A stretch of DNA of 39,480 bases from an uncultured Bacteriovoracaceae bacterium (GTDB lineage Bacteria > Bdellovibrionota > Bacteriovoracia > Bacteriovoracales > Bacteriovoracaceae). Where the stretch lies: positions 1 to 39,480 of the forward strand of contig CAJXHA010000001.1 of assembly GCA_913053615.1 (NCBI GenBank), written 5' to 3'. How positions within the stretch are numbered: position 1 is the stretch's first letter; every line of letters starts with the position of its first letter. This document shows, piece after piece, positions 7,901-38,457 of the stretch. The notes below the pieces were generated by a model that was not told where the DNA came from, did no database searches, and saw nothing but the letters and a program-made list of their open reading frames with translations. Position numbers and translations under genes: made by a program.

Positions 7901-10900
7901 TTGAGAGGATTATTTTTTCTATTATTTATCTTCATTAGTAATAGTCTTTGGGCCTATATAAGCCCAGATTCAACTAAGAGCTTTATAAGAGAAAAACTGC
8001 AATTACAAGATGGCCTTAAAAATAGCCAACTCACAGGCTTATTACAATTTAAAACAGAAATTCTGCAAAGAAAATTAGAAGTCACAAGTAATCTAGAAAA
8101 TCACTATCGCTTAAATTTAGAATTAGATAATGAGGAAATTCAAGAAGAATTAGCTGATGAGAAAATACTAATTGTATATCAATTAATCGATACAGAAATT
8201 CAAAGCATTATTTCGGATCTACAACGGTATCAAAGAGATGAGATTGAGCTAGATGAAGAAGTCATTTATACACGCTTACAAAAAATCTTAGAGCTAAACT
8301 ACTCCACAAAAACTTCAGGCATAGGCCTTTCTCAAAGTATGATCATCGAATACGTTCGTGAATACTTTGAAGACCATAAGATATCTAAGAGAAACCCCAT
8401 CACTGGCGAAGCCACAAATTTATGGAATAGAGAGAAGTCTCGTCCTTATACTCATGATGAATTAAAAGTATATAAAGAAAATGGTGGAGACCTTTCTCTA
8501 TTAGATCCTACACCTAATACACCATTTTGGTATCCAATACGCATCGAAAATAAAGCTCTTGAAAGACACTTTGCACGTGGACAAGATCCTATGTATAAAG
8601 ATGTTAAGATTTGGTTTCCAACTAAGAGAGCTAAGTTTAAAAAGGTTAAAAAATCTCAAACAAAACCTAAGTTTCACGTTACTGCCAAAAAGAATGGCAA
8701 GAAGTTTAAATACAAATTAAAATTAGCAGAAGAAATTCAATCTGAAGTCACGGCCAGTGCCCTTAGTTCTGCCCTAGGTTATCATTACGATATTTCTGAA
8801 TACGTGAAAGATTTTGAAATAGAATTACCATCTAAATTAACTGTGGATGAGCTAAAACAAGAGTTTAATAGTTATTATTCGAAATACGATTTTGATAAAT
8901 TTGTTAAAGAAATTATTCAAGAAGAAGATAAAACCATTATTGTCATTAAAGAGGCCCTTTTAGAACTTATCCCAAAAGAGCTGATTCGCGTTGGTCCATG
9001 GGCCTATGGGGAAAATGATCATAAGAGCTATCGTGAGATTCGTGGTCTTTATATCTTTAATACATGGATTGCTAATAATGACATAAAAGAAGCTGATAAT
9101 AATAAACTGGTTCTTCGCATGAACGACGATGGCCAATATCAAATGTATCAATTCCAGCATGACCAAGGTTTTAGTTTTGGAAACTTCTCTAAAGAAAAAA
9201 TTGAAGAGTTTAAGTGGGATATTATCAAGAAAACTGGTCCTGAGTATGCTGTACTTATAAATAATAATTTTCAGGCCAATTCTGGTTTTGATCATGTAAC
9301 CTACGCTGATGCGAGATGGATGATTCGTAAAATTGCCAAGCTAAGCCGTTCTCAAATTGCTGATGCAGTTAGACTTGGTGGCTGGCCTACAGAGGTTGCG
9401 ATTTTACTTACAGAAAAACTTATTAATAGAAGAAATCAATTAGTCTCTGCCTTTGATTTAGAAGCTGAGCTTGGCCTACTTGAATGTAATCGCAATATTA
9501 ACACTGCCAATGGTGTGGTTCAAAATGGTGAACTAACTGACTTTAGCTTTGAAGACTATATTAGAAATTATGGTGGTGAACTTCATGAGATGATGCTACC
9601 GATCTATGAGTCTGCTAAGTACTATGCTGCGCAAGGAGCCATTGCCCTCACTTCAAGCTTTGATACTTTTGTTATCGACTCACAAGAACTTGGTTATGAC
9701 TCAAATTACTTAGGCCAAATTCAAGTAACTCTTAATAGAGATATTAAAGAAAATGAGCGCAAGCAAGAGATCGACGATAATTTTATTGTACAAGACAGAG
9801 TCAGAGTACGTTTCTCACTTGGGGTGGGAATGGTCTTACGTGGTAAAGTTAGTTATTATAAAGACTATCGTTTAATCTACACTAAGAAAACTAGAGAAGA
9901 AGCGACCTTTAATAATAATTTTATTTTTAATGCTCTACTACCTTTTCATAAAAGGCAAAATAAATTACCGGAAGACTATGTCCTCATAGTAGAAGATGGC
10001 TTTGAAGGTGAAGGTGAACTCTTCTTTTCTGATACCCGCATACCAATAAGTGCTAGTTTTTCTAAAGGGATCGGACTTATGTCACGTACTCTTTATCATA
10101 GAAATGCAAATGACTATACAGTTTTTAGAGATCGTTCTCACTTTAGTTCATGGCATGCAGCACTTTATGCAAATCTCTATTTATTAAGAATCCCTGTGTT
10201 CCAAGCAGATGGCTATAATGGAAATTTAACTCGACAGATTTTCAAATTAAGTTTTGATGAGAAAGCTGAAAAAGATCAAAGAAAGTTAAAAGCTTTTGAA
10301 CACCTATTGATGACTGGTGATATACTACCTCTTTCCCAGGTTGCCAAAACTGCCACCCTAAGAAGTGACTATGTTAGTCGTCGTGGTTTTATTGATCTCT
10401 TTGGTCTTTTTAGAATGGATAATCGCTCACGTGAAGACAAAATCATCTATGATGACCACGATAGTTTTACTTCAAATCGCTATTATCAATATAATGCGGA
10501 ACAAATACGAGAGTGGAAGTGGTTTGATAATGGTGAAATTAAAAATCGTCGTTTTCACCTCTTAGGTGATATGGATGAGAATGAAGAATTAGATGATATC
10601 GATCTCCGTATTAGCTTCACCATTGAAGATCGCAATACTAAGATGGAAGAATTAAGTCAGCATTATATTCCATTGGCCAATCGCTTAGCGCTTAATAAAA
10701 AGTTCTTAGACTTTACCCCTGAGCTACACTCAACAAATGATACTTGGGGTAATATGCATATTGATGTAAATCTGGGCTACCCTAAAAAAGCATTAGATAG
10801 AATGCTTGCCATTACCAATGAGGAGTTCTACCAGGTCATGGCAAATTCATCTAATCGAGATGTGGATTTTTGGAGTGGGAAAACCAGAGAGGAAGTAGAT

Positions 10901-11257
10901 TATACTAGTAATCGCATGCGTTGGCGCCTAAGAGAGTTTTTAAAAGACCTTGAAAGTGCACGTAAAAAAGAAAAAGATACTGATCGCTATAAGAAACTTA
11001 CTAAGAGTTTAAAAGAACTTATTTGGAAAGAATCTGATGCTTATAATACTTCTCTTTTAGAAAGAGTTAATTATATCATTGGCAGCGATAATTACTTTAT
11101 TGAAGCACGCATGAGTATGGCCGACTATACAGAAATGCGTCTTCCCGCAGATGCTCCCCTATACAATGTGAGAAATAAGGTACTCTATCGCGATCACTTA
11201 AGCTTTGATTTTGAGTATTATCGCATGCGTGATGTTTGGTATATGTTTCAGGAATAG
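7901..11257 (+). CDS. Large secreted protein of unknown function with a possible atypical kinase-like core
   Basis: TTG start preceded by AAGGGGA (7890-7896). Signal peptide MRGLFFLLFIFISNSLWA. Residues ~260-430 show a Lys-rich strand (KFKYKLKL), an acidic helix (AEEIQSE), FNTWIANNDIKEADNN (D394/K396/N400) and HDQGFSFG (D421). Confidence 0.7.
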   Translation: MRGLFFLLFIFISNSLWAYISPDSTKSFIREKLQLQDGLKNSQLTGLLQFKTEILQRKLEVTSNLENHYRLNLELDNEEIQEELADEKILIVYQLIDTEIQSIISDLQRYQRDEIELDEEVIYTRLQKILELNYSTKTSGIGLSQSMIIEYVREYFEDHKISKRNPITGEATNLWNREKSRPYTHDELKVYKENGGDLSLLDPTPNTPFWYPIRIENKALERHFARGQDPMYKDVKIWFPTKRAKFKKVKKSQTKPKFHVTAKKNGKKFKYKLKLAEEIQSEVTASALSSALGYHYDISEYVKDFEIELPSKLTVDELKQEFNSYYSKYDFDKFVKEIIQEEDKTIIVIKEALLELIPKELIRVGPWAYGENDHKSYREIRGLYIFNTWIANNDIKEADNNKLVLRMNDDGQYQMYQFQHDQGFSFGNFSKEKIEEFKWDIIKKTGPEYAVLINNNFQANSGFDHVTYADARWMIRKIAKLSRSQIADAVRLGGWPTEVAILLTEKLINRRNQLVSAFDLEAELGLLECNRNINTANGVVQNGELTDFSFEDYIRNYGGELHEMMLPIYESAKYYAAQGAIALTSSFDTFVIDSQELGYDSNYLGQIQVTLNRDIKENERKQEIDDNFIVQDRVRVRFSLGVGMVLRGKVSYYKDYRLIYTKKTREEATFNNNFIFNALLPFHKRQNKLPEDYVLIVEDGFEGEGELFFSDTRIPISASFSKGIGLMSRTLYHRNANDYTVFRDRSHFSSWHAALYANLYLLRIPVFQADGYNGNLTRQIFKLSFDEKAEKDQRKLKAFEHLLMTGDILPLSQVAKTATLRSDYVSRRGFIDLFGLFRMDNRSREDKIIYDDHDSFTSNRYYQYNAEQIREWKWFDNGEIKNRRFHLLGDMDENEELDDIDLRISFTIEDRNTKMEELSQHYIPLANRLALNKKFLDFTPELHSTNDTWGNMHIDVNLGYPKKALDRMLAITNEEFYQVMANSSNRDVDFWSGKTREEVDYTSNRMRWRLREFLKDLESARKKEKDTDRYKKLTKSLKELIWKESDAYNTSLLERVNYIIGSDNYFIEARMSMADYTEMRLPADAPLYNVRNKVLYRDHLSFDFEYYRMRDVWYMFQE

Positions 11258-11279
11258 TTGGGTCTAATTAAAACCCAAC
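11257..11279. terminator. Weak hairpin overlapping the stop of the 1118-aa gene and the orphan ggt stop; likely ancestral inter-gene hairpin
   Basis: GTTGGGT (11257-11263) - ctaattaaa - ACCCAAC (11273-11279). The left arm is absent at the second repeat copy, where the sequence is gatcgga. Confidence 0.3.
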
Positions 11280-11300
11280 TGCTTGTCCATAACCACGCAT
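11264..11300. repeat. Direct repeat copy 1: orphan duplicate of the ggt 3' end (candidate att site)
   Basis: CTAATTAAAACCCAACTGCTTGTCCATAACCACGCAT is identical to 15054-15090. On the minus strand it reads ATG CGT GGT TAT GGA CAA GCA GTT GGG TTT TAA, which is MRGYGQAVGF*, the C-terminus of GGT. No gene body is attached here. Confidence 0.9.
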
Positions 11301-11352
11301 TTCACAGAAATCCAAAAGCTCTAAACTACTGAATTTAAACAAGTTCACCACA

Positions 11353-11381
11353 TTGTAAAACGTGTTATAACATGTTATACT
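11353..11381 (+). promoter_or_regulatory. mazEF promoter with embedded palindromic operator
   Basis: TTGTAA (11353-11358), a 17-nt spacer, then TATACT (11376-11381) with a TG extended -10. The spacer holds the perfect 10-bp palindrome TGTTATAACA (11363-11372), immediately followed by a third half-site TGTTATAC. GGAG SD at 11401-11404. Confidence 0.6.
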
Positions 11382-11411
11382 AACATTATCTTTTAGTCAG
11401 GGAGACTATCT

Positions 11412-11648
11412 ATGGGTGCTATAAAGCTTAGCAAGATTGGAAATTCACAAGGATTTACATTACCTAAAGAGTTACTTGAAAGAGGTAACTTCAAGCTTGG
11501 TGATGAATTAGAAATACATCTTTATAATGGACGCCTTATCATTTTTAAAAAACCTCAACATCATACTGAAATGAGCTTTGAAGATAATAATAACTTAGAT
11601 AAGGAAGACAGAGAATGGATTGACTCTGATTTAGGAGAATGGGAATAG
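11412..11648 (+). CDS. mazE: AbrB/SpoVT-fold MazE/PemI-type antitoxin
   Basis: The N-terminus KLSKIGNSQGFTLPKELLE...GDELEI is the swapped-hairpin AbrB/MazE motif, and the C-terminal tail is acidic. The stop lies 1 nt before the toxin ATG. Confidence 0.8.
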   Translation: MGAIKLSKIGNSQGFTLPKELLERGNFKLGDELEIHLYNGRLIIFKKPQHHTEMSFEDNNNLDKEDREWIDSDLGEWE

Positions 11649-11649
11649 A

Positions 11650-11970
11650 ATGCTAAGAGGTGAAGTTTGGGACGTTGCTTTGAGTCCTACAAAAGGAAGT
11701 GAACAAAAAGGTACAAGGCCTGCGGTAATCATATCTCCTAATACATTGAACACAAGCTTAGATATCAAAGTTGTCATTCCTCTTACAACTAAATTAAAAA
11801 ACTGGCCTTCAAGAGTTAATACAGATTTCAAAACTATTAAAGGTCAAGCAATGTGTGAACAAATTAGAACAGTATCAAATAAAAGACTTGTTAATAAACA
11901 AGGCAATCTATCTGACAGTGAAATTGTTGAAATTATGAGTACTATTTCTGCTCTTTATGGAACGGCCTAA
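11650..11970 (+). CDS. mazF: MazF/PemK-family endoribonuclease toxin
   Basis: RGEVWDVALSPTKGSEQKGTRPAVIIS...VIPLTTK...CEQIRTVSNKRL matches the PemK/MazF signature (G-x-EQ-x-G-x-RP, P-x-T, Q-x-R-x-x). Confidence 0.85.
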   Translation: MLRGEVWDVALSPTKGSEQKGTRPAVIISPNTLNTSLDIKVVIPLTTKLKNWPSRVNTDFKTIKGQAMCEQIRTVSNKRLVNKQGNLSDSEIVEIMSTISALYGTA

Positions 11971-12160
11971 GTTATACTGAGCTAGGATTGTAATATCTGG
12001 TTTGAAATCATAATTATTTATTAAAAAAATAATAAAACAACTCCCCCCAATAATCATTAATAGAATCTTTTAGACATACTAAATTAAGTTACCTTAAGAG
12101 AAGATACGTCCCTGTATATTCATTTTAGCATAAATGTTACTCTTGTTAAAAGGGTCAAAA

Positions 12161-12778
12161 ATGTTAAAATTAATTTTCTTCACAGGATTATGCTTAATCT
12201 TATTTACTAGTTGTTCTTCTACAACAAAGTATGGACTTGTAGCTGGAGCTCAAAAAGCTAATTACAAGGAAACTGCTGATGTATCAAGTGTCATAACGGG
12301 AAATGGGACTCTCCTTCCAGACTATACAAATGAGGGTAATGGTTTTTTCATTGGGATATCCGAAGAGCTTCCATGGATACTAACTAAAATAGTCTACTTT
12401 CAAAATAAATATGAAGACAAAGATTATTCATATGATGGAACCACTTACGCAACAGCTTTAAGTGAGTCAGGAATCAGAGGCTCTCTTGCTTTAAAATTTG
12501 GTTTTTTCCAACCATTTATATCATTCGCAAGTTATAACTCAGAATATGAAGTCAATGGTTCAAGTGATGAAACTGACTATACTGCCCTTGGGTATGGAGT
12601 TGATTTAGAGTTTAATGTTGGAAAAGATAAATATATTTACTTAGGTATTGAACTCAATACTTATGAAGATACTGTTGTCGATGGATTAGTTTTTGCAGAA
12701 CAAACCCTAGAGCACCAAACGATATACTTGGGTTATAGACAAAATTTTTGGACTGTTGGTGGTAAAGGCAGTAAATGA
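12161..12778 (+). CDS. Lipoprotein, probably a small outer-membrane beta-barrel
   Basis: I placed the start at ATG 12161 (MLKLIFFTGLCLILFTSC, lipobox LFTSC), after AAAGGG. The body shows alternating aromatic/polar beta-strand periodicity (GYGVDLEFNVG, IYLGIELNTY, IYLGYRQNF). Confidence 0.6.
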   Translation: MLKLIFFTGLCLILFTSCSSTTKYGLVAGAQKANYKETADVSSVITGNGTLLPDYTNEGNGFFIGISEELPWILTKIVYFQNKYEDKDYSYDGTTYATALSESGIRGSLALKFGFFQPFISFASYNSEYEVNGSSDETDYTALGYGVDLEFNVGKDKYIYLGIELNTYEDTVVDGLVFAEQTLEHQTIYLGYRQNFWTVGGKGSK

Positions 12779-14592
12779 TGATATTCCATATTAAAGCTAT
12801 AACCCTTATTTTCTTTCTGGCAATAAAACTTTATGCAAACGAAAGAAATAATAAAGTACTTATACGCAAAAGTATTGAACATCTAGATAATAAAAGAATT
12901 CATAGAGGGTATTTAAAATTTCAAATAAAGGATGAGGAATTTAAAAGTCTTAAAGAAAAACAAAGGACACTTTTCTATAAAAGTTTAATTTCACCTAGTG
13001 AAAACATAAAAGATTTAGAAATAGGAGAAATAAAAAAGTCTAAAGATGGCATGTATAAAGTTAACTTTAGTTATCAATCCAAAATGCCAATGATAGTACT
13101 AAGTAAGAATTTGTATGCATTTGACTTAACCTACCCTCAAATAAATATTTTAAAGTACTCTCTCCAACCAAGAGAAAAGAGAATTAAAACATATTTTAAT
13201 ATTGATTTTGAAAAGAATATTTATATAAAAGAAAGTAATTTTAGTAAATATGCTCTTCAAAAGTGCAATTATAAGAATTCATTCATTGATATCTCGTATG
13301 ATATTTCTCGTAAAAAAAATGGAGTTTTAGTCACACATAAATATTCATTAAATAAAATTGATATGGAAGTTTCAGATGAGATAATCAAAGAAATTGAAAA
13401 TCTAAAATCTTACTTGAATTCATGTTCAAGTTTTTATTTAACATACAGTCCAGGAGATCAGACAAATCTTGAAAATTATTTATTTAAAAATGATTTGATA
13501 AATGATTTGAATTTAATTTACTTATTTCAAAATAGTCCTCAAAGATATAGAGAGTTAATTTTAAAGAACATAGACTCAAAATACGATGGTTCTAGTTTAT
13601 TATATTTCAAAGCATGGAATGCAATGATTAAAAAAGATCATAAATCAGCAGTAAGTTTAATTGATCAATCAGTTCAGTCTAAACCAGTTTATTATAGAGC
13701 CGAGGGCTATAGGCTCATCTGTTATCATGAATTAGAGAAAGATAAAGTTCATATGCCACAATTAATCGATTTAAAAAGCTCTAAAAATACAAGTCAATTT
13801 TTTAAAGATTACTATACAGCAAGGTATTGGCATAGAAAGAAAGATTATAAAAAATCCCGTAAACTTTTCAACAGTGCTCTAAAAAATAAAGACACTGAGA
13901 ATAGAATTGGAAATACTGAGTTTAATATAATATATAATTCTCTTTCATATATAAATGTAATAGAAAAGAAACATGAAGAAAATATTATTCTTAACAAAAA
14001 ATCATTATCAAGTTTAAGTTCTCGAAAAGCAAACGCACATGCCTTTATACTAAACTCATTAATTCAATTAAAACGAATTGATGAGGCTATTAAATATATG
14101 AAAGAAAAGGAATTTCCAGTAACTAATGATTACTTAAGTTCAAAGTTTTCTGAAGTATATCAAGCAAAAGCTCATGCTGAACTAAAAAAAGAGAATGAAG
14201 ATGATGCAATAAAATACTTTAATAAGTCTTTAGAATATTATTCATACTCAGATCCATACTATGTTTTGGGTCAAATTTTTGAAAATAGAAAAAATTATAA
14301 AAAAGCTTTTGATTCTTTTCTTGAAGCGATTAAAATATCGCCCAATTTAAATGGATACTATAGAAGAATTTCTACAATAATGCTTTTTAAATTAAATAAC
14401 GACCCCATATACACTAGTCTATTTTTTTCAGAAATTAGAAAACTAAACCCTAGTCATGTTAATAATGGTCTTGTATATCTATGTGAATTTTTTGTAAATA
14501 ATAAGACCGATGCAAGTAATAAATTTTGTAAGATGGCAGCTAATAGCTACCCTTTAAATCCTGCTTTGAAAGACAAAATCAATAAAATATAA
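12775..14592 (+). CDS. Secreted TPR-repeat protein, unknown function
   Basis: ATGA overlap with the lipoprotein gene. Signal peptide MMIFHIKAITLIFFLAIKLYA. The C-terminal half has TPR-like helix pairs (for example YYVLGQIFENRKNYKKAFDSFLEAIKISPN). The DNA is extremely AT-rich. Confidence 0.6.
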   Translation: MMIFHIKAITLIFFLAIKLYANERNNKVLIRKSIEHLDNKRIHRGYLKFQIKDEEFKSLKEKQRTLFYKSLISPSENIKDLEIGEIKKSKDGMYKVNFSYQSKMPMIVLSKNLYAFDLTYPQINILKYSLQPREKRIKTYFNIDFEKNIYIKESNFSKYALQKCNYKNSFIDISYDISRKKNGVLVTHKYSLNKIDMEVSDEIIKEIENLKSYLNSCSSFYLTYSPGDQTNLENYLFKNDLINDLNLIYLFQNSPQRYRELILKNIDSKYDGSSLLYFKAWNAMIKKDHKSAVSLIDQSVQSKPVYYRAEGYRLICYHELEKDKVHMPQLIDLKSSKNTSQFFKDYYTARYWHRKKDYKKSRKLFNSALKNKDTENRIGNTEFNIIYNSLSYINVIEKKHEENIILNKKSLSSLSSRKANAHAFILNSLIQLKRIDEAIKYMKEKEFPVTNDYLSSKFSEVYQAKAHAELKKENEDDAIKYFNKSLEYYSYSDPYYVLGQIFENRKNYKKAFDSFLEAIKISPNLNGYYRRISTIMLFKLNNDPIYTSLFFSEIRKLNPSHVNNGLVYLCEFFVNNKTDASNKFCKMAANSYPLNPALKDKINKI

Positions 14593-14594
14593 AG

Positions 14595-15017
14595 CTAATC
14601 TTTTTTCTTAGGAGGAACATAATTATTTTTTTTAAAAAATCTTTTGGCATAAACATAAAGACAAAAGAAAAGAATAAATCCAAAGAATTCGCGATTAAAT
14701 AGATTTGTAAAATTAGTATCTCCAAAAGCAATTCTGATAAAGAGAAAAAAAGAAATGATAAGAAGATTTAGTTTAATTAATAGGACAATATGATTTTTCA
14801 TCAATACTACACTATTCTGGAAAAAATAAGCCTGATTACCTTTATACCATGAATACGCTAAAGCTATAGCGTAGATAATTGTTTCAAGATTGCCTTTTGT
14901 ATAATGAATAATATTAAAGTTCTGATTGTAAAAACTAAACTGAAAAATGCTATAAAATAAAATTATACTTAAGTATAAGAAGCCTGCACTATAAAGGAAA
15001 TGTCTTAGTTTTAACAT
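14595..15017 (-). CDS. Small 4-TM membrane protein, unknown function
   Basis: It has four hydrophobic segments and a basic C-terminal tail (PPKKKD). It is convergent with the TPR gene at a 2-nt spacing. Its upstream region abuts repeat copy 2. Confidence 0.45.
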   Translation of the reverse strand: MLKLRHFLYSAGFLYLSIILFYSIFQFSFYNQNFNIIHYTKGNLETIIYAIALAYSWYKGNQAYFFQNSVVLMKNHIVLLIKLNLLIISFFLFIRIAFGDTNFTNLFNREFFGFILFFCLYVYAKRFFKKNNYVPPKKKD

Positions 15018-15053
15018 CTGTTCTCATTAGTTCTTATTTTTTAATAGATCGGA

Positions 15054-15090
15054 CTAATTAAAACCCAACTGCTTGTCCATAACCACGCAT
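15054..15090. repeat. Direct repeat copy 2: the functional 3' end of ggt (candidate att site)
   Basis: Identical 37-mer to 11264-11300. Here it is contiguous with the ggt reading frame. Confidence 0.9.
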
Positions 15091-16794
15091 ATCACTTACA
15101 CCATGAAGCTTACCATTTTCATTAGCAATGGCCTGAATAGAGCACCCAAAGCCTTTTTCATTGATTTTATATCCCATGGCCTGCAGCTCTTTTTTTGTAT
15201 TGGTATAAAAATATGGAGGATCCACGCGGATCTCATCAGGATACCATTGATGGTGATAACGAGTGGCCGCCACTGCTTCCCATAATGGAAGTTCATGCTC
15301 AATATAATTTAAAATCGTCTGTGCTACACAAGTAAGAATTCTTGTTCCACTTGGAGTTCCAAGGGCCAAAACCGGCTTTCCATCTTTAATCACAATACTT
15401 GGTGACATTGAACTTAATGGTCTTTTTCTAGCTTCTACTAAATTATTTTCTCCCCCCAGAGCACCAAAGAGATTTACCCCCGAAGCACTAGCAGCAAAGT
15501 CATCCATTTCATTATTCATAACAATTCCTGTCCCCTCTGCAACCAGAGCGGAACCAAACCAACCGTTAATGGTCTGAGTAGAAACAACGATATTTCCTTC
15601 TTTATCCATTAAAGAAAAGTGAGTGGTATGTTCTGGCTCCTTGCCTAATGGACTAGGTGTTTTTAATTCTTCAAAACTTAGTGCTTTATTCTTTTTAATA
15701 AGTTTTCTAAGTCTAGCGGCATAGTCTTTTGAAGTCAGAGTTTTCAAAGGAACATCTACAAAATCACTATCTCCCATATATCTTTGACGATCACGAAAAG
15801 CTAATTGCATTGCTGCACTTGTTAAGTGAATTGTTTTTGGGTTTTGAACTCCCATACTTTTCAGGTCATAGTCTTCTAAGATATTTAAGATTTGAACAAT
15901 ATGCGTCCCACCTGAACTTGGTGGTGGCATTGAAATTATCTCATATCCTTTATAGCTTCCTTTTATTGCATCACGTTTTTTTACTTCATAGCCTGCTAGG
16001 TCTTGCATGCTCATATCAGCTTTTTGCTCTTGAATAGAAGCGACGATTTTCTTGGCGATATCACCTGTATAAAAATCTTCTCCATAAGTTTGAGCAATCG
16101 TTTCTAAAGTCTTGGCAAGATCTTCTTGTACTAGCACGTGACCAATTGGCCAAGGCTCCCCTGCTTTATTTAAAAAGATTTCTTTTGAATCAGTGAATTT
16201 TAAAAGTCGATCTCTTTCTGCACTCATAGCATTATGAAGGGCAGGATAAACTTTAAATCCATTACGTGCTAGTTTGATTGCTGGTTGAACCGTTTTATCC
16301 CAATCCATTTTTCCCAGATCTTTGTGAATTTTAGCAAGACCTCTAACGAGTCCAGGCGTCCCCGCTGCAAAACCACCTGTTAGAGATTTATCTTTAATTT
16401 GTTTTCCTTCTGCATCCACAAAGTACTTCTTATGGGATTTTAATGGGGCCATCTCTCTAAAGTCATAGACATGGGACTTTTTAGTTTTCGCATCATAATA
16501 AATAAGAAAACCACCGCCACCAATTCCTGTTGAATGAGGTCTTTCAACTGAGATAGCAAAGGATACGGCCACAGCAGCATCAATGATATTTCCTCCGGCC
16601 TTAATAATTTCTAAACCAGCTGCACTGGTTCCCTCTCCTTGAGTGGTGATCATAAAATTATCACTTATGAGTTCATGCTTCTTTTTATTCTCTGCATCGA
16701 CTTTTACTTGGCGATAAGAAGAATCACATGCGATAGCAATAAAGATTAGAGTAATAGTAAGGACTAAGTGTGACATTTTAATAAAATTTTTCAT
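15058..16794 (-). CDS. ggt: Gamma-glutamyltransferase
   Basis: Full-length Ntn-hydrolase pattern. The autoprocessing/nucleophile site EHTTHFSLMDKEGNIV, the GGGGFLIYY motif and PLSSMSP are present. N-terminal signal/lipobox IAIAC. Confidence 0.9.
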   Translation of the reverse strand: MKNFIKMSHLVLTITLIFIAIACDSSYRQVKVDAENKKKHELISDNFMITTQGEGTSAAGLEIIKAGGNIIDAAVAVSFAISVERPHSTGIGGGGFLIYYDAKTKKSHVYDFREMAPLKSHKKYFVDAEGKQIKDKSLTGGFAAGTPGLVRGLAKIHKDLGKMDWDKTVQPAIKLARNGFKVYPALHNAMSAERDRLLKFTDSKEIFLNKAGEPWPIGHVLVQEDLAKTLETIAQTYGEDFYTGDIAKKIVASIQEQKADMSMQDLAGYEVKKRDAIKGSYKGYEIISMPPPSSGGTHIVQILNILEDYDLKSMGVQNPKTIHLTSAAMQLAFRDRQRYMGDSDFVDVPLKTLTSKDYAARLRKLIKKNKALSFEELKTPSPLGKEPEHTTHFSLMDKEGNIVVSTQTINGWFGSALVAEGTGIVMNNEMDDFAASASGVNLFGALGGENNLVEARKRPLSSMSPSIVIKDGKPVLALGTPSGTRILTCVAQTILNYIEHELPLWEAVAATRYHHQWYPDEIRVDPPYFYTNTKKELQAMGYKINEKGFGCSIQAIANENGKLHGVSDMRGYGQAVGF

Positions 16795-16860
16795 GACCCT
16801 ATTTTGAAGAAAAAGTCTTAAGCTGTCACGAAAAGATAACTTGAGTATAGCGGACGAGTA

Positions 16861-17208
16861 TTAATCCCAACGATTAAAAAGTATATTAACTGTATCCACG
16901 TAATCTTTTAGGATTAAAAAGTATCCAAACTTCATATCAAGACGACAAAGAGTAGTATTTAAGGCCTCAGTACATTGAACTTCTGTTAATTCAACTTTTT
17001 CACTACAACCGAGATCATTTAATGTTTTTGTTACTGCATTATAGGCCATTTGTGGATCAAGTGTTTCAGCTGAGTTGGAATAAACGTCACTAGAATGTTG
17101 GCTATAATGGGCCGAGTCCCCATAACCTTCAGTGAGGCGTTCATAACAAGAGATATTAGCGAAAGCGACTTGAGATACGAATAATGTTAAAACCAATAAT
17201 TTTTGCAT
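16861..17208 (-). CDS. Small secreted Cys-containing protein, unknown function
   Basis: Signal peptide MQKLLVLTLFVSQVAFA and four Cys. No recognised family. Confidence 0.45.
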   Translation of the reverse strand: MQKLLVLTLFVSQVAFANISCYERLTEGYGDSAHYSQHSSDVYSNSAETLDPQMAYNAVTKTLNDLGCSEKVELTEVQCTEALNTTLCRLDMKFGYFLILKDYVDTVNILFNRWD

Positions 17209-17283
17209 ACGAGCTTATAAAATATTTTTCACACTCTGCCATCTTAAATGTAAAATATTCACATTACTTATGGTTTCAGCTAT

Positions 17284-18123
17284 TTAAATGACTGTGGCCT
17301 CTGCCTGAATAAAGGAATAGAAGAAAACCGCATTAGGATCATTGGCGACAGATCTAAGCTCTTTATAGCAATTATCGGCTAATTCTTGCGAGATCACTCC
17401 CTCTTTTATTAATTGATCTTTGCCACTCATTAAAAGCTCAGTCCAAAACTCAATGGTTTCCTTGCGTTTATCAGGGTGACGATTATCAAAATGCCAAGTC
17501 TTCACCTGAGTTTTGACATTAGTAAATCCCATGGAAAGTAGGAGATTTCCAAGCTTTGCCCCCACAAAAGGATCACCAGCATTTTCATATTGATAATCAT
17601 TAAACTTCATCCAATACTCCCACACATTTGGAGAATAAGGATCAAGAAAGAATGAAGAATTTAAAACTTCTGTAACATAGATGCGACCACCAGGTCTTAG
17701 AACTCTTCTGGCCTCACTAAGAACCTTGGCCGGTTCAGGAATATGTTCTAAAACCCAGCACAAGAAAGCCCCATCAAAAGAATTACTTTGAAAATCTAGT
17801 TTTTGAGCATCACCTTTTTCAACCGTGTACCTTCCTTGTGCATAAGAATGGGATTTTAAATTATCCTTACAGGCAGCAATTTGATTTTCATTAGCATCAA
17901 TACAATTAATGTGCATATTTGGAAAACGTCTTAAAAGTATTTCTGTTTGAGCACCTACTCCACAACCAATTTCAATTAGCTTTCCAATATCACTTAGATT
18001 AAGTCCTTCATAAATTTTATATTCAGAAAACGCAGCTTGTTGTCTTAAGCGATCTTGTTCTTTTTTTGAAAAGCCATGTAGATATGGAAACTCTGTTTTA
18101 TCTGGTTCATTTTTATTGGCCAT
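17284..18123 (-). CDS. Class I SAM-dependent methyltransferase
   Basis: Motif I LIEIGCGVGAQT, the post-I acidic residue and motif II FDGAFLCWVLEH. Confidence 0.8.
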   Translation of the reverse strand: MANKNEPDKTEFPYLHGFSKKEQDRLRQQAAFSEYKIYEGLNLSDIGKLIEIGCGVGAQTEILLRRFPNMHINCIDANENQIAACKDNLKSHSYAQGRYTVEKGDAQKLDFQSNSFDGAFLCWVLEHIPEPAKVLSEARRVLRPGGRIYVTEVLNSSFFLDPYSPNVWEYWMKFNDYQYENAGDPFVGAKLGNLLLSMGFTNVKTQVKTWHFDNRHPDKRKETIEFWTELLMSGKDQLIKEGVISQELADNCYKELRSVANDPNAVFFYSFIQAEATVI

Positions 18124-18257
18124 AAATTCTCCTCAGTTTATTTTACTAAAAATTAATAAGGATTAAAGAGGTAATACTAATTACCAGCTAGCCGAGCATT
18201 GAACTCGGGTAATGAATTTATTTTGCATGGCTTAACTTTCTACCTTACAATATTAAT

Positions 18258-19148
18258 ATGAATAAAATCTTCTTGTTAATGAGTATGCTTATGATCTTTG
18301 GTGTGCATAACGCTAATGCAAGACCCAAAAAAGCATTAACGCTTATTCAAAAACAAAAAAAATTAAAAGATATACAAAAGAAAGTAGAAAAGATGTCTAG
18401 AAAGGGTTGGACTTTCTACGCCTATCAATCCAAGCAGATCTATGTACTGACTGGAAAGTATCGCTATACCAAAGTATCTTTTGATGAGTTTTATATGCCT
18501 CGTCTATTTCAAAGATATTCTAAAGAATATAGGCCAAGCCAAGTTGGTAAAGATGTGGTCTATTTTTATCAAAAAGGTTTTACTATTGTCCTTAGACGCA
18601 ATGGTCGTTTTTTTCGCATGAAAGATGGTAAAATTAATGAGTTTGATCCTTTAGAAGAATCAATTTTTGATATTAATAAAGAAAAAGCACAAACATTTAA
18701 GAGAGCTCAGTGTGCACTATGTTCATTTAAACTTTCTTTTAACACAGTGAGTGTCGGTGGGAATCTACAGTATAATGCTGAGTTTGCTTGGCTACCCTAT
18801 TTCTCTCTAACTGATTATACGGGAATTCGCCTTTCAGTTGGACTTTCTCCATATACCGTTGAAAATGATGACCTTGAAGAAGTGGTTGATCCAGGCTTTA
18901 AAGGACAAATTCTCTTTCGCCAATACCTTTACAACCTTTTCTTTGAAATTGGTGGAGGGGTTCATTACTTTATGCAATCAGGTGACACCTCACCTATGGT
19001 GACAACTGGTTTAGGATATACTTTTATTGAACCTCATTGGATTTTTAGTGAGAAGATTCATATGAGTAATATCTTCTTTCATATTTCTACTATTGATTGG
19101 GATGAGACAATTAATGAGGCGAAGTTTGGTGTTGGATTAACTTTTTAA
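18258..19148 (+). CDS. Secreted protein with C-terminal outer-membrane beta-barrel-like half
   Basis: Signal peptide. The C-terminal half has amphipathic strands and ends in FGVGLTF (terminal Phe typical of OMPs). Confidence 0.5.
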   Translation: MNKIFLLMSMLMIFGVHNANARPKKALTLIQKQKKLKDIQKKVEKMSRKGWTFYAYQSKQIYVLTGKYRYTKVSFDEFYMPRLFQRYSKEYRPSQVGKDVVYFYQKGFTIVLRRNGRFFRMKDGKINEFDPLEESIFDINKEKAQTFKRAQCALCSFKLSFNTVSVGGNLQYNAEFAWLPYFSLTDYTGIRLSVGLSPYTVENDDLEEVVDPGFKGQILFRQYLYNLFFEIGGGVHYFMQSGDTSPMVTTGLGYTFIEPHWIFSEKIHMSNIFFHISTIDWDETINEAKFGVGLTF

Positions 19149-19151
19149 AAA

Positions 19152-19811
19152 TTATTCTAAACTTAAGGTAGAGAGTTTCTTCTGATCTTGATCTTTTAAG
19201 ATAAGAGCTCCCCCCTCAACTTCTAAACTCTTTGCTTCAAGAGAAATATCCACAGACTGCACTAAATCTAAAAACTGCTTATCTTCTCTCGCCTTCACAC
19301 TGGCCAGGCGGCTATAAACTAATAATTTATTAGTTGTATTATTTAAAATATAAAGTGAATCACCTATAACGGCGACATCATTCGCTCCCACTAATTCATC
19401 TTTTTCAAGAATTCTTATAGGAGCCACATTACCTGGCACTTCACTTAAAAATACTAATAGCCTTGAGCTCTTTGTATCAATAACATAAAGCTCTTTATGG
19501 GCATGATCATAAAAAACAGCACCAACATCTTCTAATAAAGTATTTGAACCCGCAGTTAAATAACGAGCATCTGCTTTTTTATCATAGGTTAAAAGTGCAT
19601 TTTGAAAGCCTGTATACTCACGATCAATGGTCTCATCTGAATAAGAGTCCTTAGCATTTGAAGCCGAATTACTACTTATAAGTTCTTTACATTGAGAACT
19701 TACTTGATCAAAACCACTACCATCACCTAGTTTAGAAAATGCAAATTTACAATCAGCTAGATTTTGAGCATATAAATTAAATGAGAGTAATAATAAAATT
19801 ATAGCTTTCAT
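19152..19811 (-). CDS. Secreted protein with NHL/propeller-like strands, translationally coupled to the giant IPT/TIG gene
   Basis: Signal peptide MKAIILLLLSFNLYA. ELYVIDTKSSRLLVF and SLYILNNTTNKLLVY are blade-like strands. Its ATG overlaps the upstream TAA by 1 nt (TAATG at 19809-19813). Confidence 0.55.
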   Translation of the reverse strand: MKAIILLLLSFNLYAQNLADCKFAFSKLGDGSGFDQVSSQCKELISSNSASNAKDSYSDETIDREYTGFQNALLTYDKKADARYLTAGSNTLLEDVGAVFYDHAHKELYVIDTKSSRLLVFLSEVPGNVAPIRILEKDELVGANDVAVIGDSLYILNNTTNKLLVYSRLASVKAREDKQFLDLVQSVDISLEAKSLEVEGGALILKDQDQKKLSTLSLE

Positions 19812-22800
19812 TATTTCGTTCCTTGTATGGTTCGTTGGGTGGTTCCCCCATCACTGGCCGTGGCCTCTAAAGTCGCACTATAACTACCAGTGCTTAAAAA
19901 TTGTGCCATAAATGTTACATCTACCGTACAGGTTGCCCCTGAAGATAGTGATGTCCCAGAACAATTATCACTTGTCACTGAAAATTCCGTCGAACCAGTT
20001 GAGACAGCTATATCTGCTGTGGTTGCAGTAGGCCCAGTATTTTCAAGTGTAAATGTAGCACTCACGTTAGTACTTTGAGTTCCATAATCATAAGTCGCTG
20101 TACTTTGCCATGTTAGGTTTGCCCCATTTGCATATGTAAATGAGCTACCAAGAGTAGCAGTTTGAAAGTATTGCACAACATTCACATCATAAGTTCCCGC
20201 TGAACTTGCACCAAGAGTACAAGAAAATTGAGTAGGACTTATATGTGAAATTCCAGTACAGGCAACACCACCAATATTCATACTGTATTGGCCAGAATCA
20301 AAATTAGTCCCTGTAACTGTCACAACTGTTCCACCTGCAGTTGAACCTGTTGCTGGTGAAATATTTGTAACTGTTGGCGAGTCTGTAAATAAGAAGCCAT
20401 TTGTAAGGGTATCTGTACTTAAATCAGGATTTGTTACCACAACATCCTCAAAGGCCTCAACCCCATTATTAGCAGTGTCACAAACGATAGTGGTTGGAAC
20501 ACCTGAATAATCATAATTTGTACAAGCTCCACCAATTGCAACCGTAGCACCACTTACAAAGTTTGAACCTGTGATAGTCACAGTTGTCCCACCAGCTGTA
20601 TCCCCACCTTGAGGACTAATGCTAGTAATGCTTGGACTTGCACCAACATAGGTATAACCATTGGTAGCAGTAACTGTTAGACCACTTTGATTCGTAATAA
20701 TAACATCGACAGCACCTGGTGCACCACCAGCAGGTGTTAAACAACTTATAGAAGTAGAGTTAGTTCTGACTAAAGAAGTACATGGGTTACCATCAATTGT
20801 TACACTCACCCCAGTTGCAAAATTACTACCAGAGATCGTTATGGCCTCACCACCAACAACACTACCTTGATCATCAGAACCATCAGTAAGTGAAGTAAAT
20901 GTTGGTGTATCTTCATATTCAAAACCATTACTTAATGTACCTGTTATTCCATTACCATTTGTAACAACCACATCCCCTATAGTATCAGCACCAACTGAAC
21001 CAGTAGTACAAGTAACACTAGTAGAGTTTTGAGCTGTGATTGAACAAGCAGTACCCGCTAGAGTAACTGAGCTTACGGCAGCAAAATCACTACCACTAAT
21101 AACCACTGATTTCCCACCTGCAATAGCATCATGGTCATCACTAATTGATGTCACTGTTGGTGGCGGTGATACGATTACATTATTAGTATCATCATCTACT
21201 TGGCCATCAGGGTTTGTCACAACTAAGTCATATGTTCCAGCTGAAGCACTCGCTGTGACACAAGTTAAAGAAGTTGCACTATTAAATGTGGTAGTCGCAC
21301 AATTCACTCCAACTTCTACGGTTGCACCACTAACAAAATTACTACCTGTGATATTGATAGTATCTCCACCACCAGTTTGCACCACACTTACATCAATTGA
21401 AGTAACATGTGGACGAGCAATATATTGTAAGAAGGCAGAGCTATCTGAGCCTTGTTGTGTATCTGGACTAATAACAATAACTTCTACCATACGAGTCGTA
21501 TCAGTAGTAGCACTTGGAGCCGTGGTACAAGTTAGACTCGTATCGCTGGCAACACTAACACTAGTACATGCTTCACCATCAACAGTGACTGTTGGATCAG
21601 TACCGTAATTTTGAAAACCAGTACCTGTAATGGTTAAAGTTGTGGCCAAACTTTCTGGAGCAGTGCTTGGAGTAACATTTGTTACTGTCGGAGCATCAAT
21701 GATTTTATAAATACCAGTAAGTGTATCAGTTCTTCCATCTCCATTGGTAACTGTAATATCATAATCACCTGGAGTCTGTGGTCCTGCAGCTACTGTACAA
21801 GTGACACTACTTCCATCACCGGCAACTGCTGTTACAGTACAACCTATTCCACCAATATCAACAGTGACAACACCACCACCTAAAGTTGAATCTCTTAAAC
21901 CAGAACCAGAAATAGTAATACTATTGGCTCCCGCTGCAGGTCCACCAATTGGTGAAACACTTGTAATGTCTACAGCTGGATGATAAGTGAAACTTGCATA
22001 AGCATTTGAAACTTGTCCATCCGGATTCGTTACTGTAACTGTACTAGTACTACTTCCAGCACTTGATGTACATGTTAATGAAGTTGTCGTTGGTACAGAA
22101 ATCACAGTACAAGGACTTCCTGCTAGATCAACGGTATGACTAGTATCACCAGAGATAAAGTTAGTTCCGGTAATCGTAATTGTTTGTGAACCATCACTAC
22201 GTCCACCATCTGCATCAGTTGGTGAATCAACTGCAGTCACCGTTGGAGCTGGTAGATAGTCGATAGTTGTACTACCTGTTTGACCACTTTCATTTGTAAC
22301 TAATAAGGTAACCCCTGTACCAGTTCCGGCAGGAGTAGTACAAGTAATAGAAGTTGGACTTGAGTTGCTTGTAATAGTACATGGATTACTATCGATGGTA
22401 ACAGTTGCATTATCATATAAATCGGTACCAGTTATAACAAGAGTCTGTGAGCCGACTTCATAAATTGTGGTTGGGTTTGTGCTTGAAATCGCAGGATCTG
22501 CCACATAAGCAAATGCTCCACTATCAGTTACGGTTTGAGCATCATCATTAGTGACCACCACATCATAAGTACCTATTCCTGCACCACCATCGGCCGGAAC
22601 CACACAATCAATATCTGTAGTTGAATTCACTGTTGAACTTGTACAGGCCACTCCATTAATACTAACAGTGGCACTAGCTTGAAAACCAGTCCCTTGTACA
22701 TTGATAGTATTTCCACCGGCAACTGGGCCATATGCATAATCATAACCTGTAATAGTTGGAGCGGCGACATATCTTAATTGGGCCGTATCACTTTGCCCAT

Positions 22801-25800
22801 CAGCATTTGTATAGGTCACAGTAATAGGATCTCCTGTTCCTGCTGGAGTGGTACAGGTATAACTTGTTGGTTCTGTATCACTTACATAAGTACATGGATC
22901 AGTTCCTATTGTAACAGTTGCATCAGATCGAAGATCTGTACCGGTGATAATAATATTTTCCCCACCTGCCTCTGCTATATTTTCATTACTATAAAGAGCT
23001 ATTGGATTTGGAACTGTAATGCTACTAATTGATGGAGCTCCAATATAATCAAATGATCCAACACTACCTGTTGTTTGAAGATCGCCAGAATTTACAATTT
23101 CAATATTTAATCCAGTTGCCAAGGCATGGGCAGGAGTAACACAGGTTAAGGTATTTGCATCTACAAATGTCGTTGAACTACAGGCCGTACCATCAATTCG
23201 TACTTCCATATTTGCACCGGTGAAATTAGCTCCGGAAATAGTAACCGTGCTTCCACCTAAAGGATCACTATAATCAGGTGAGACACTAGCAAAAGTAGGC
23301 GCAGGTCTAAAAATAAAGGCACTTGATGAGGTACTGGTTTGTCCATCTTGATTTGTCAGCACCACATCTTGTAATGAATAACTACCAGCAGGAATATAAC
23401 AATCAAAGGTATTATTATCTACAAACTGTGAGTCAGTAACACCCACACCTTCCGCAGCACAAGTCGCATCACCAACAGTGACACTCATTCCGGTTTGAAA
23501 GTCAGTTCCAATTAAGCGAATCTTATATCCACCATTATCATTTCCACCATCAATAATTGTGGTTCCTGTTTCTTCATATATATTTGTCAGAGTTGGAGGT
23601 CCGATAAAGTCAAAGAAAGCTGCACTATCACCAAACTGTCCACTCACTGTATTAGTTACTCGAACAACATAATCTTCTCCTGAGCTATGAGCAGGTGTAT
23701 CACAAGTAATTGTCGTGGCATTTACACGATTTACATTAGTACAAGTATCTCCATCAATAGTTACACTCACACCTGAACTATGAAAATTAGCACCAGTAAT
23801 AGTAATACTCGTTCCACCAGCAATATCAGAAGAAGTCGGTGTTGTTGCTGGAGATGTAACAGTTAAGTCGGGATCGAGTACAAATTCATATGAGCTTGCT
23901 AATTGATCTGTTTGTCCATCTTCATTTGTAACATCAACATTGAGTAAAGCTGACGCTGAACCATAATTAGGAGTAGTACACCTTACTTCATTTTCAGAAA
24001 CATAAGTTGTAACTGAACAAGTTTGTCCATCTATATCAATACTTACATTTGGCATTAGATAACTACCATAAACAGAAATTTCTTGTCCCCCACCTGTCGG
24101 TCCAATAAATGGATAGATTGATGAGATAACAGGAGCTGGTCTATAGGTATAAGCACTGGCCAATGTAAAAGCTTGGCCATCTGGATTAGTCACGCGAACA
24201 TTTGATAATGTTGCCGCACCAACAGCTGGAGCAACACAGTCTACTCTTGTAGCAGTTAAGTTGCTTAAGCTACCACAAGTTTGGAATGTTCCATTTTCAT
24301 CAGATAACTCAACAGTTAAGCCCGTTTGAAAATTAGTTCCTTGAACTTGAATCGTATTTCCACCGGCCACTGGGCCATAATCAATAAATGGCAGTACAGG
24401 AGTGGTAACAATTGTTACAGTAGGTGCTGGATTATAAATATAGGCCCCAACTCCTACTCCTGCTTGATTATCGTCTGTATTAGTAACGGTAACATTATAA
24501 GTACCAGCGGTATTGGCCGGAACATCACAATCAAAACTAGTGCTTGTTACATTTGTTATATTAGTACAGTTTGCGGCTCCAAATAAAACAGTGAAATTTC
24601 CAGCAGAATCAAAACCTGTACCTGTTACACTAACTGTTCCCCCACCACTTTCTGGTCCATTTCCAGGAGTGACACTGGTAATTGTAGGAGCCGGTCTATA
24701 AGTAAAGGCATTAGTTAAAGTTGCTTGTTGACCATCAAAGTTTGTAACAACCACATCGCCTGTTTGAGCAGTTTGAACATCTGTTACACAAGTTATCGTA
24801 TTTCTATCCACAACAGTTGCAGTTGCACAACTAACACCTGCCATAGTGACATCAAATGAACCGCCACTATCAAACCAATCACCAGTGATAGTAATGGTAT
24901 CACCACCGTTTATTGAGCCATAAGCTTGATCAATACTTGTAAGTGTTACTGCTGGAACATACTCGATAGTATCTGAATCAGTACCTCCATCTGCATTACT
25001 TACAACCACTGTCACATCACTACCAAAGGCACCATAACGACTAGTACCAGTTCCACTAGTACTCCAATATGGAATAGTGGTACATGTAATAACTGTTCCT
25101 GTATTCGTAGCGACGGGACAATCAAAGCCACCAATTTCAACGGTTCCACTGGTGGTAGAGCCATCAAAGTTTGTTCCATTAATTGTAAGTGTTTGTCCTC
25201 CAGCTTCCTCTAAGGTTGTTGGAGAAAAACTTGTAATCGTCGGAGGATCAACATAATCATAGCCACTCACAAGAGTACCTGTTTGCGAGTCAACATTAGT
25301 CACTGTAATAGTATATGAACCTGCAGTATTAGCACCTGTGGTACACGTTGCGGTAGTAGAGCTCACGGTAACCACACTAGTACAAGCACTTCCACCAATA
25401 TCAATTGAAGAAATTTGATAAAAACCAGTTCCTGTTAGGGTGATGGATTCGCTACCGGCCACACTCCCTACTGCTGGAGTAACAGAGCTAATTGTAGGTG
25501 CCGCTAAATAGCGATAACCATTACTAAAGGTAAAGCTTTCACCTTTAGAATTATTTATTGTAATGTTTTTTGAACCAGCACTTGCACTACTTAAAGTACA
25601 AGTAAGAATGGAGCTACTAAGGGTTGCGATAGTACACGTTCCATCACCAAGACTAACACTTGTGACTAAGTCTAGATTTGATCCATTAAGAGTAAGGGTT
25701 CCCCCTCCACTAGTTGATCCATATGCGGGACTTACAGAAGTAATGGTTGATGTGGATGCGATTTTTTCTTGGCGAAGTCTTTCTTCTAAATTTTCAACAG

Positions 25801-25897: not shown

Positions 25898-26094
25898 TAC
25901 TAGTATTTTACCATTCCCTTTTACTCAACAAAGACTTTGAGTCTTTTTAATAAGTTAGAGCATTAGGCATTACTCATATTTAGGGACTTTGCCACTAAAA
26001 ATGGTCAGACTATACTCCTATCTAATTTTCGGAGATTTAGGGGTAAAACTTTAAATGTATATTATTGATTTAACTTATCAGATAAGCCCTAAAT

Positions 26095-38168: not shown

Positions 38169-38171
38169 ACC
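38151..38171. repeat. Orphan 21-bp copy of the tRNA-Cys 3' end (candidate att remnant)
   Basis: GGAGAGGATCGGATTTGAACC is identical to 38324-38344, which covers the acceptor 3' strand plus the T-arm of the tRNA. Extended by four bases on the low-coordinate side, 24/25 match. Confidence 0.85.
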
Positions 38172-38439: not shown

Positions 38440-38457
38440 TAAATTTAGTGCTTTATA

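Follow-up and report, generated by a model that had tools for sequence, protein, structure and literature searches.

The subject of this analysis is a small block of genes, here termed the islet, which lies directly downstream of ggt, the gene for gamma-glutamyltranspeptidase, in an uncultured marine Bacteriovoracaceae bacterium, and which is enclosed by two copies of the 3' end of that gene. The stretch of DNA analysed, hereafter the window, comprises 39,480 nt (assembly GCA_913053615.1, contig CAJXHA010000001.1, positions 1-39,480, forward strand). Within it the islet occupies the 3753 nt between the repeats (11301-15053) and contains five open reading frames (ORFs) with non-coding gaps of at most 163 nt; on its left lies a gene for a protein of 1118 amino acids (aa), on its right ggt itself, the two flanking genes being convergent. 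Identical copies of both flanking proteins occur on marine metagenome contigs, mostly from Tara Oceans samples, one of these contigs (k119_282999 of ERZ27286507) being 270,780 nt long; ERR599127, ERR599076 and ERR599152 are among the runs from samples with the islet. Comparison with relatives and with a second strain shows that the islet is inserted into an ancestrally compact gene-gene junction and marks it as a discrete unit, whose own history is more recent.

Two copies of the ggt end

An earlier note on this DNA had drawn attention to a 37-nt direct repeat, CTAATTAAAACCCAACTGCTTGTCCATAACCACGCAT, and its description of the repeat withstood every check. Exactly two copies are present in the window, on the same strand and 3790 nt apart (Table 1). 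With the nearest flanks included, 43 of 45 positions match (11261-11305 against 15051-15095), and without gaps the similarity of the arms can be followed over 68 nt (11253-11320 against 15043-15110; 84% identity), taking in on the left the letters AATAG-T-GG; overall, the similarity extends over 52-68 nt. Outside the 37-mer it drops steeply, to 8 of 11 matching positions leftward and 4 of 5 rightward. The right copy is, as claimed, the true end of ggt, consisting of the stop codon (15058-15060) and the last ten codons, MRGYGQAVGF, of the minus-strand ORF, and the left copy repeats this end as an orphan; it begins 7 nt past the TAG of the 1118-aa ORF and has no reading frame attached to it. Chance level was judged against 100 dinucleotide-preserving shuffles of the window, in which the 37-mer found no match, even with three mismatches permitted. 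Nor is the 37-mer dispersed: each locus that spans both ends holds two copies, and the 89 other fetched loci, those of the closest relatives included, hold none. A repeat of the repetitive extragenic palindromic (REP) kind is rejected on these counts, for the window and the fetched loci.

The hairpin that the earlier note had seen only at the left copy, with the stem UAGUUGGGU/ACCCAACUG, is likewise confined to that copy. The left 61-nt fold reaches -14.9 kcal/mol on the plus strand and -17.2 kcal/mol on the minus strand (z -2.6 in both cases), as against -4.5 and -7.6 kcal/mol for the equivalent fold at the right copy, where z is about 0, as in shuffled sequence.

Genes of the islet

The islet opens with a toxin-antitoxin pair, whose two genes are adjacent, with the antitoxin first, as in type II modules of the MazEF/PemIK kind; both Pfam scores are over the cut-off. 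That mazEF stands at the left end is thus borne out; the distance of 50 bp from the repeat given for it is not, the mazE ATG lying 111 nt past the repeat. What begins about 52 nt past the repeat is a promoter-like site that overlaps a palindrome. Promoter-like sites are no commoner than in shuffles; to judge from the sequence, this site and its palindrome are probably an auto-regulated mazEF promoter and operator.

The third gene encodes an ORFan, for which a word-indexed homologue search returned nothing but the query and a single-sequence AlphaFold model was unusable (predicted local distance difference test score 35). Its stop codon and the start of the gene that follows share the letters ATGA; this following gene encodes a protein of 605 aa with tetratricopeptide repeats (TPR), here called TPR605. 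A word-indexed search with TPR605 again returned the query only, and of 600 pattern matches in an alignment-based scan of metagenome contigs none was confirmed. The fifth ORF, on the opposite strand, encodes a small hydrophobic protein.

Within the TPR605 gene (12880-14320; 23-26% G+C), no fewer than twelve independent assemblies of low coverage break off, at scattered positions (12882, 12922, 13378, 13731, 13807, 13938, 13949, 13951, 14245, 14261, 14291 and 14315). These breaks likely stem from loss of coverage through AT bias rather than from structural polymorphism, and hidden variation there is possible.

In agreement with the earlier note, the islet contains no integrase: none of the five ORFs matches any recombinase, transposase, relaxase, type IV secretion or other transfer family. 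Recombinase families are also absent from those other window ORFs of at least 100 aa that were scanned or have a precomputed Pfam record, and the called genes of a further 2 kb on the left and about 8 kb on the right have none on record, approximately 50 kb in all. PADLOC defence models found no match in the islet, Rfam none in 10800-15500, and blastn of the islet none among plasmid and phage records.

Table 1. Features of the islet, its borders and the window
Feature	Position	Strand	Remarks
1118-aa gene, left flank	7901-11257	+	conserved, function unassigned; no Pfam or NCBIfam match; TAG (11255-11257) forms part of hairpin stem
Extended left similarity block	11253-11320	+	68 nt, 84%; edges are the point of divergence between chromosome-type and element-type sequence
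Hairpin, original gene-gene junction	11255-11281		stem 11255-11263 with 11273-11281, loop 11264-11272; right arm is ggt-end sequence within the orphan copy; basis, folding energies
attL-like 37-mer copy	11264-11300	+	orphan of ggt stop and last 10 codons
Promoter-like site	11353-11381	+	TTGTAA-17-TATACT with TG; overlaps palindrome 11355-11380
mazE, antitoxin	11412-11648	+	78 aa; AbrB/MazE fold family; PF04014 33.7 bits (cut-off 24.7); TIGR02609 below cut-off
mazF, MazF/PemK-family toxin	11650-11970	+	106 aa; PF02452 84.8 bits, E 6e-24; MazF NCBIfam models below cut-off; starts 2 nt past mazE stop
ORFan gene	12134-12778	+	214 (or 205) aa; putative lipoprotein signal peptide; possible outer-membrane beta-barrel (PF13505 weak, E 0.007, below cut-off)
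TPR605 gene	12775-14592	+	605 aa; signal peptide, C-terminal TPR repeats (TPR_2, TPR_8 matches); 25% G+C
140-aa gene	14595-15017	-	hydrophobic, probably membrane, protein; no family match; 24% G+C; always between TPR gene and ggt
attR-like 37-mer copy	15054-15090	+	working ggt 3' end
ggt, right flank	15058-16794	-	gamma-glutamyltranspeptidase, 578 aa, intact; PF01019 full length, E 4.9e-165
tRNA-Cys	38320-38397	-	

An insertion into a compact junction

The junctions of relatives were reached through homologues of the 1118-aa protein, which led to the syntenic loci L090-L095. (The 34 homologue clusters of this protein, with lengths of about 1100-1165 aa, reach down to 27% identity. The family is spread over Bacteriovoracaceae-like, Silvanigrellaceae and other metagenomic lineages and carries no Pfam or NCBIfam domain.) In four relatives the homologue and ggt abut or overlap: the two stops are 3 nt apart in L091 (71% identity in the 1118-aa gene), 4 nt in L093/L094 (59%) and 1 nt in L095 (60%), and in L092 (59%) the genes overlap by 13 nt. 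Since these four junctions are compact, the 3.75 kb of the window represent an insertion. Joined across a single 37-mer, the left and right flanks of the window give the same architecture as the relatives' empty junctions, with a spacer of roughly 10 nt between the convergent genes. An empty site had been predicted to consist of the stop, the hairpin, one 37-mer and ggt; the layout resembles what the relatives have, while of the hairpin there is only a hint in L091, the nearest of them, in the form of a 4-bp stem. A search of GTDB species genomes with ggt gave, as best matches, Bacteriovoracaceae metagenome-assembled genomes at 58% identity and without synteny, and was uninformative on the empty site.

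The junction of the remaining relative, L090 (71% identity in the 1118-aa gene), is occupied by a TPR gene alone. L090 is a sister of the empty L091, the two flank proteins being 85% and 90% identical. Its junction protein, also of 605 aa, is 34% identical to TPR605 (E 3e-99) and was the sole full-length homologue when 1.84 billion cluster representatives were scanned in full with HMMER; this junction has neither mazEF nor the 214-aa and 140-aa genes, and no repeat. The 34% is a clear outlier among the proteins shared by the two loci, the 13 flanking orthologues being 50-87% identical. With L091 empty, this disparity fits two separate insertions of related cargo. It is possible that related cargo was delivered twice to one spot, which would favour a targeted mechanism, or else that an old, fast-evolving resident was lost in L091.

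The neighbourhood of ggt is a general hotspot for gene-content change. In L090, ggt is separated from the counterpart of the window's 115-aa gene by three extra genes, for a ceramidase, a fatty-acid hydroxylase and a TetR regulator (17037-19555), and L092 has a different extra gene, for a hybrid histidine kinase, further along. In L093, where the site is empty, ggt is called as three fragments of 185, 67 and 126 aa (13338-14982), which may denote a pseudogene or frameshift errors of assembly.

A history separate from that of the flanks

The islet is also found in a distinct strain, that of sample ERZ23499031, represented by two contigs, L104 (window 9114-13378) and L002 (window 14315-26794). 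Against the window, L104 shows 28 single-nucleotide polymorphisms (SNPs), all within 9124-11146 and 26 of them synonymous, and L002 shows 87, the first at 15112; 16 of these fall in 15112-15747, and every SNP in ggt is synonymous. The flanks of the two strains have diverged by 1.3-2.5%, almost wholly through synonymous changes. In 11147-13378 and 14315-15111, which take in both repeats and all 2.8 kb of assembled islet, 2.9 kb together, not one SNP was found. The SNP-free gap that spans the islet is the longest in the 16.7-kb comparison and extends past the repeats by at most 117 nt leftward and at most 21 nt rightward; when a segment of the islet's size is placed along the comparison, 1% of the placements are SNP-free, all of them at the islet's own position. 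For an islet without SNPs between flanks diverged by 1.3-2.5%, the common history is younger than that of the DNA on its two sides. About 20 contigs with an identical mazF and 17 with an identical 140-aa protein show the same context throughout, and nearly all are 100% identical to the window in their DNA.

Composition of the islet

Mean G+C content (GC) is 28.0% in the islet and 35.0% in the window. The earlier note's low-GC interior is real, windows of 300 nt giving 23-35% in the islet and 34-42% in ggt, although the size of the contrast had been overstated. mazE, mazF and the 214-aa gene, at 32-34%, are indistinguishable from the host's 35%; the drop to 23-26% begins only at about 12800, well inside the islet, such that the right boundary alone is sharp and no break coincides with the left repeat. 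At third codon positions (GC3) the five islet genes range from 0.185 to 0.241, within the host range (mean 0.242, standard deviation 0.042 for the 28 other genes), and the low GC of the TPR and 140-aa genes comes from codon positions 1 and 2, the encoded proteins being rich in Lys, Asn, Ile, Tyr and Phe. Because GC3 is host-like, the low GC stems from amino-acid composition, and since mazEF and the 214-aa gene are moreover at host GC, composition is no independent sign of foreign origin. As evidence for such an origin it was rejected after this breakdown by codon position.

How the islet may have arrived

The perfect core, the diverging arms, the restored gene end and the displaced orphan end together make up an anatomy that fits conservative site-specific recombination. 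The reading we favour, to which we would give slightly better than an even chance, is that the islet integrated site-specifically behind ggt and resembles a cis-mobilizable element (CIME), its att sites having been kept and its recombinase either lost or acting in trans. Two features of CIMEs are present: direct repeats of att type, in the form of the 37-mer pair whose right copy is the end of ggt, and an interior free of integration and transfer genes, the ORFs being those for MazE, MazF, the ORFan, the TPR protein and the membrane protein. Of the earlier note's proposal, site-specific integration with restoration of the ggt end, the insertion and the anatomy stand as observed, and the recombination itself we infer from that anatomy.

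On this proposal a circular element would have carried an attP of about 50 nt that mimicked the chromosomal junction (AATAGATCGGA, the 37-mer and TTCAC) and would have recombined conservatively with the attB (AATAGTTGGGT, the 37-mer and ATCAC), the crossover falling somewhere within the 37 nt of identity. ggt would have kept an intact 3' end, now attR, and the displaced copy would have become the orphan beside the 1118-aa gene, now attL. The junction sequences predicted in this way are CAGGAATAGTTGGGTCTAATTAAAACCCAACTGCTTGTCCATAACCACGCATATCACTTACACC for attB, the empty site, and TTTTAATAGATCGGACTAATTAAAACCCAACTGCTTGTCCATAACCACGCATTTCACAGAAATCC for attP, the circle. The recombinase would subsequently have been lost, as in a decayed CIME-like element, or would be supplied in trans from elsewhere. 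mazEF at the left end would penalise loss of the islet, and the second part of the cargo may be an envelope module, made up of a lipoprotein-like ORFan gene translationally coupled to that of a secreted TPR protein, and of a small membrane protein.

A bolder version of this proposal has the islet currently mobile in ocean populations, with an unlinked recombinase that has repeatedly delivered cargo of the clade-restricted TPR605 family to an approximately 50-nt site at the ggt stop in different lineages, the identical islet having entered at least two strain backgrounds. We consider this doubtful; if true, it would describe a minimal, toxin-antitoxin-stabilised 'hitch-hiker cassette' system that docks at the 3' end of a protein gene.

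Several points weigh against site-specific integration of a mobile unit. Neither a cognate recombinase nor an attP-bearing element, a circular junction or an empty site in the same species was found in the loci and collections searched, nor were arm-type repeated motifs or clear core inverted repeats, and the search for motifs shared by the two inner ends and for terminal inverted repeats gave nothing above shuffles. Blastn against plasmid and phage records, scans of contigs and the contigs with identical mazF and 140-aa proteins revealed no other context for the cargo or the 37-mer. A degenerate 33-mer for the ggt end (MRGYGQAVG[FY] and stop) had no match in metagenome and viral contig collections, a weak negative given that the host itself is seemingly missing from them. 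A relative with the same cargo and no repeat had been named as refuting evidence, and L090, with its homologue of TPR605 at the same junction, goes part of the way towards this; the host-like GC3 and the unbroken left boundary leave the compositional argument weak. Finally, the SNP contrast is based on two metagenome contigs from one sample, in which 936 nt of the TPR gene (13379-14314) were unassembled, the flanks are mosaic between strains and include one other long SNP-free gap, of 2.7 kb, and a strain-chimeric assembly retains some small probability as the source of the contrast.

The same insertion could have come about with no dedicated recombinase, the block spreading as a flexible genomic islet through RecA-dependent homologous or homology-facilitated illegitimate recombination, be it by a Campbell-type single crossover of a circularised fragment with short ggt-end homology, which would leave a duplication of 37-52 nt, or by double crossovers in the flanks between strains. 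The lack of an integrase in about 50 kb accords with such a route, as do the similarity that reaches past the ggt stop into the spacer and the neighbour's AATAG, expected if the donor was a relative's junction, and the mosaic flanks, which point to frequent homologous recombination; gene content near ggt, moreover, varies without visible repeats, as the TPR-only insert of L090 and the ceramidase, hydroxylase and TetR genes illustrate. Yet an identity of 37 nt comes near the lower limit for exchange by way of RecA, and the donor would have to carry only the last 37-41 nt of ggt, abruptly joined to non-ggt sequence, which in itself implies an earlier site-specific excision. The SNP-free tract, too, ends far closer to the repeats than is typical of homologous recombination. 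Weighing these, we regard the RecA route as rather unlikely.

Less probable still, in our judgement, is that the islet was never one mobile unit: the TPR gene would be an old, fast-evolving resident, handed down from an ancestor shared with L090 and lost in L091, the islet would have been built stepwise, and the 37-mer would have been duplicated in an illegitimate insertion of mazEF and the 214-aa gene. It is consistent with such a course that the TPR family has two members in 1.84 billion representatives, both at this junction, that L090 has no repeat, that the GC3 of the cargo is host-like, and that the islet is compositionally in two parts, its left part having 32-34% GC and its right part 24-25%. 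Against it, the repeats enclose the whole block and not just mazEF and the 214-aa gene, the overlap of the 214-aa stop with the TPR start makes these one operon, and the junction is compact and empty in L091 as well as in three outgroup relatives. The identity of the two TPR proteins, furthermore, is far below that of the 13 flanking orthologues, and the entire assembled islet is SNP-free between strains.

That the 37-mer is a chance match, a REP-like repeat or an artefact of assembly is highly improbable, for although some de Bruijn assemblies break at or in the repeat (L107 begins at 11271), the shuffles gave no match, the copies number two in the window and in each spanning locus and none in the 89 other loci, and the same structure was independently assembled across both copies in L001/L098/L108, L003/L100, L008 and L101/L110.

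Other classes of element were rejected. A self-sufficient integrative element, whether prophage, integrative and conjugative element (ICE) or integrative mobilizable element (IME), would have its own tyrosine, serine or DDE recombinase beside the att site, and the islet has none. A transposon or insertion sequence does not agree with the absence of a transposase and of terminal inverted repeats or with a duplication of at least 37 nt, as against the 2-15 nt expected. An integron cassette would need an attC whose motifs run RYYYAAC...GTTRRRY, with an integron integrase close by; here GTTGGGT and ACCCAAC stand in the reverse order, at the left copy only, and there is no IntI among the ORFs covered. 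A dif-like site, as used by integrative mobile elements exploiting Xer (IMEXs), scored at best 13 of 28 positions against the 28-nt dif of E. coli, where the background of the window averages 14.4.

Relation to known elements

Integration at the 3' ends of protein genes is well documented, with fda, trmE, yicC, guaA and rpsI among the targets. SGI1 (Salmonella genomic island 1), which resides in trmE, and the mobilizable genomic islands (MGIs) in yicC are integrative mobilizable islands of this kind. To our knowledge, ggt has not been reported as an att site. SGI1 and the MGIs resemble the islet, on the favoured reading, in that the gene end is restored from the element's att and direct repeats stand at both ends, and in their retention by a toxin-antitoxin system (sgiAT, PMC5006074); they differ in encoding their own tyrosine integrase and excisionase and in measuring 15-45 kb, the islet of 3.75 kb having neither gene. 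IMEXs, which rely on the host XerCD at dif, share with the islet, on the same reading, the direct repeats of a recombination site and a recombinase encoded elsewhere, whereas the region of the 37-mer is not dif-like and lies in a gene end rather than where replication terminates. Tycheposon remnants that consist of cargo only, like additive flexible genomic islands, are small, strain-variable blocks of oceanic genomes, with partial copies of the target gene at their edges and often without a recombinase. Such blocks have tRNA or tmRNA targets and form arrays, in contrast to the islet, a single unit at a protein-coding 3' end.

The closest parallel is with CIMEs, att-flanked elements without an integrase, which are an established class (PMC5704250). 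Those that belong with ICESt1/ICESt3 of Streptococcus and sit at the fda 3' end are, like the islet, short and cargo-only, with attL and attR repeats containing the end of a protein gene and with no integrase or transfer genes (for the definition, PMC5704250). The earlier note had called a protein-coding 3' end as attachment site, combined with a recombinase-less cargo, unusual; with CIMEs established and such targets known, this was overstated. The islet differs from these CIMEs in that its lineage has no known integrase-bearing ICE or IME at the same att site, descent by decay and cis mobilisation being putative, and in that its host is a marine Bdellovibrionota predator, the CIME host being a Firmicute.

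Toxin-antitoxin modules stabilise integrated elements, as mosAT does SXT (PMC2654960) and sgiAT its island (PMC5006074), and by likeness to these a stabilising role for the islet's mazEF is plausible. Modules of the mosAT and pemIK type share with it the antitoxin-first order, the toxin gene 2 nt further on, a promoter palindrome and a place at the element's edge (PMC2654960).

Other features of the window

The end of a second gene is duplicated in the window. It is that of tRNA-Cys, whose 3' end, the 21-mer GGAGAGGATCGGATTTGAACC, is present at 38151-38171 and at 38324-38344 in the same orientation, 173 nt apart, where none is expected by chance; the left of the two copies overlaps the stop of an ORF of 111 aa with a low GC of 25% (37833-38168). 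This suggests a second att-like scar and, with it, that integrative elements visited the genome before. Adjoining the tRNA gene and cut by the window end is a hipBA-type toxin-antitoxin pair (38440-39480, minus strand; L115 11683-13232), with an 86-aa HTH_3 protein and a 430-aa HipA_C protein, which makes two toxin-antitoxin modules in 39 kb. Over the roughly 8 kb that follow there are core genes (HU, SecDF, YajC, TGT) and no integrase.

Eight of the SNPs between the two strains are crowded into 39 nt (23683-23721) inside the gene for a 2028-aa TIG-domain protein (19811-25897, minus strand), where 12 of the strain comparison's 17 non-synonymous codon differences also fall. Within this giant surface protein the cluster may mark a short tract that is hypervariable or has undergone gene conversion.

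Significance for the host and its relatives

Integration at gene 3' ends, integrase-less att-flanked remnants and islands stabilised by toxin-antitoxin systems are all established. What is new here is the detail, namely ggt as target, a Bdellovibrionota host and the SNP contrast at population level, and no new mechanism is involved. If the reading as a site-specifically integrated islet is right, ggt would join the list of att targets and recombinase-less islets akin to CIMEs would extend to the Bdellovibrionota. Exact attB and attP sequences would also be at hand, for which Tara Oceans reads can be screened. A cassette of envelope and toxin-antitoxin genes would then be common, without a single SNP, to strains that differ by 1.3-2.5% in the adjoining DNA, and the locus would offer a natural example of gene-content turnover in an uncultured marine predator, in which a cassette docks without damage to ggt.

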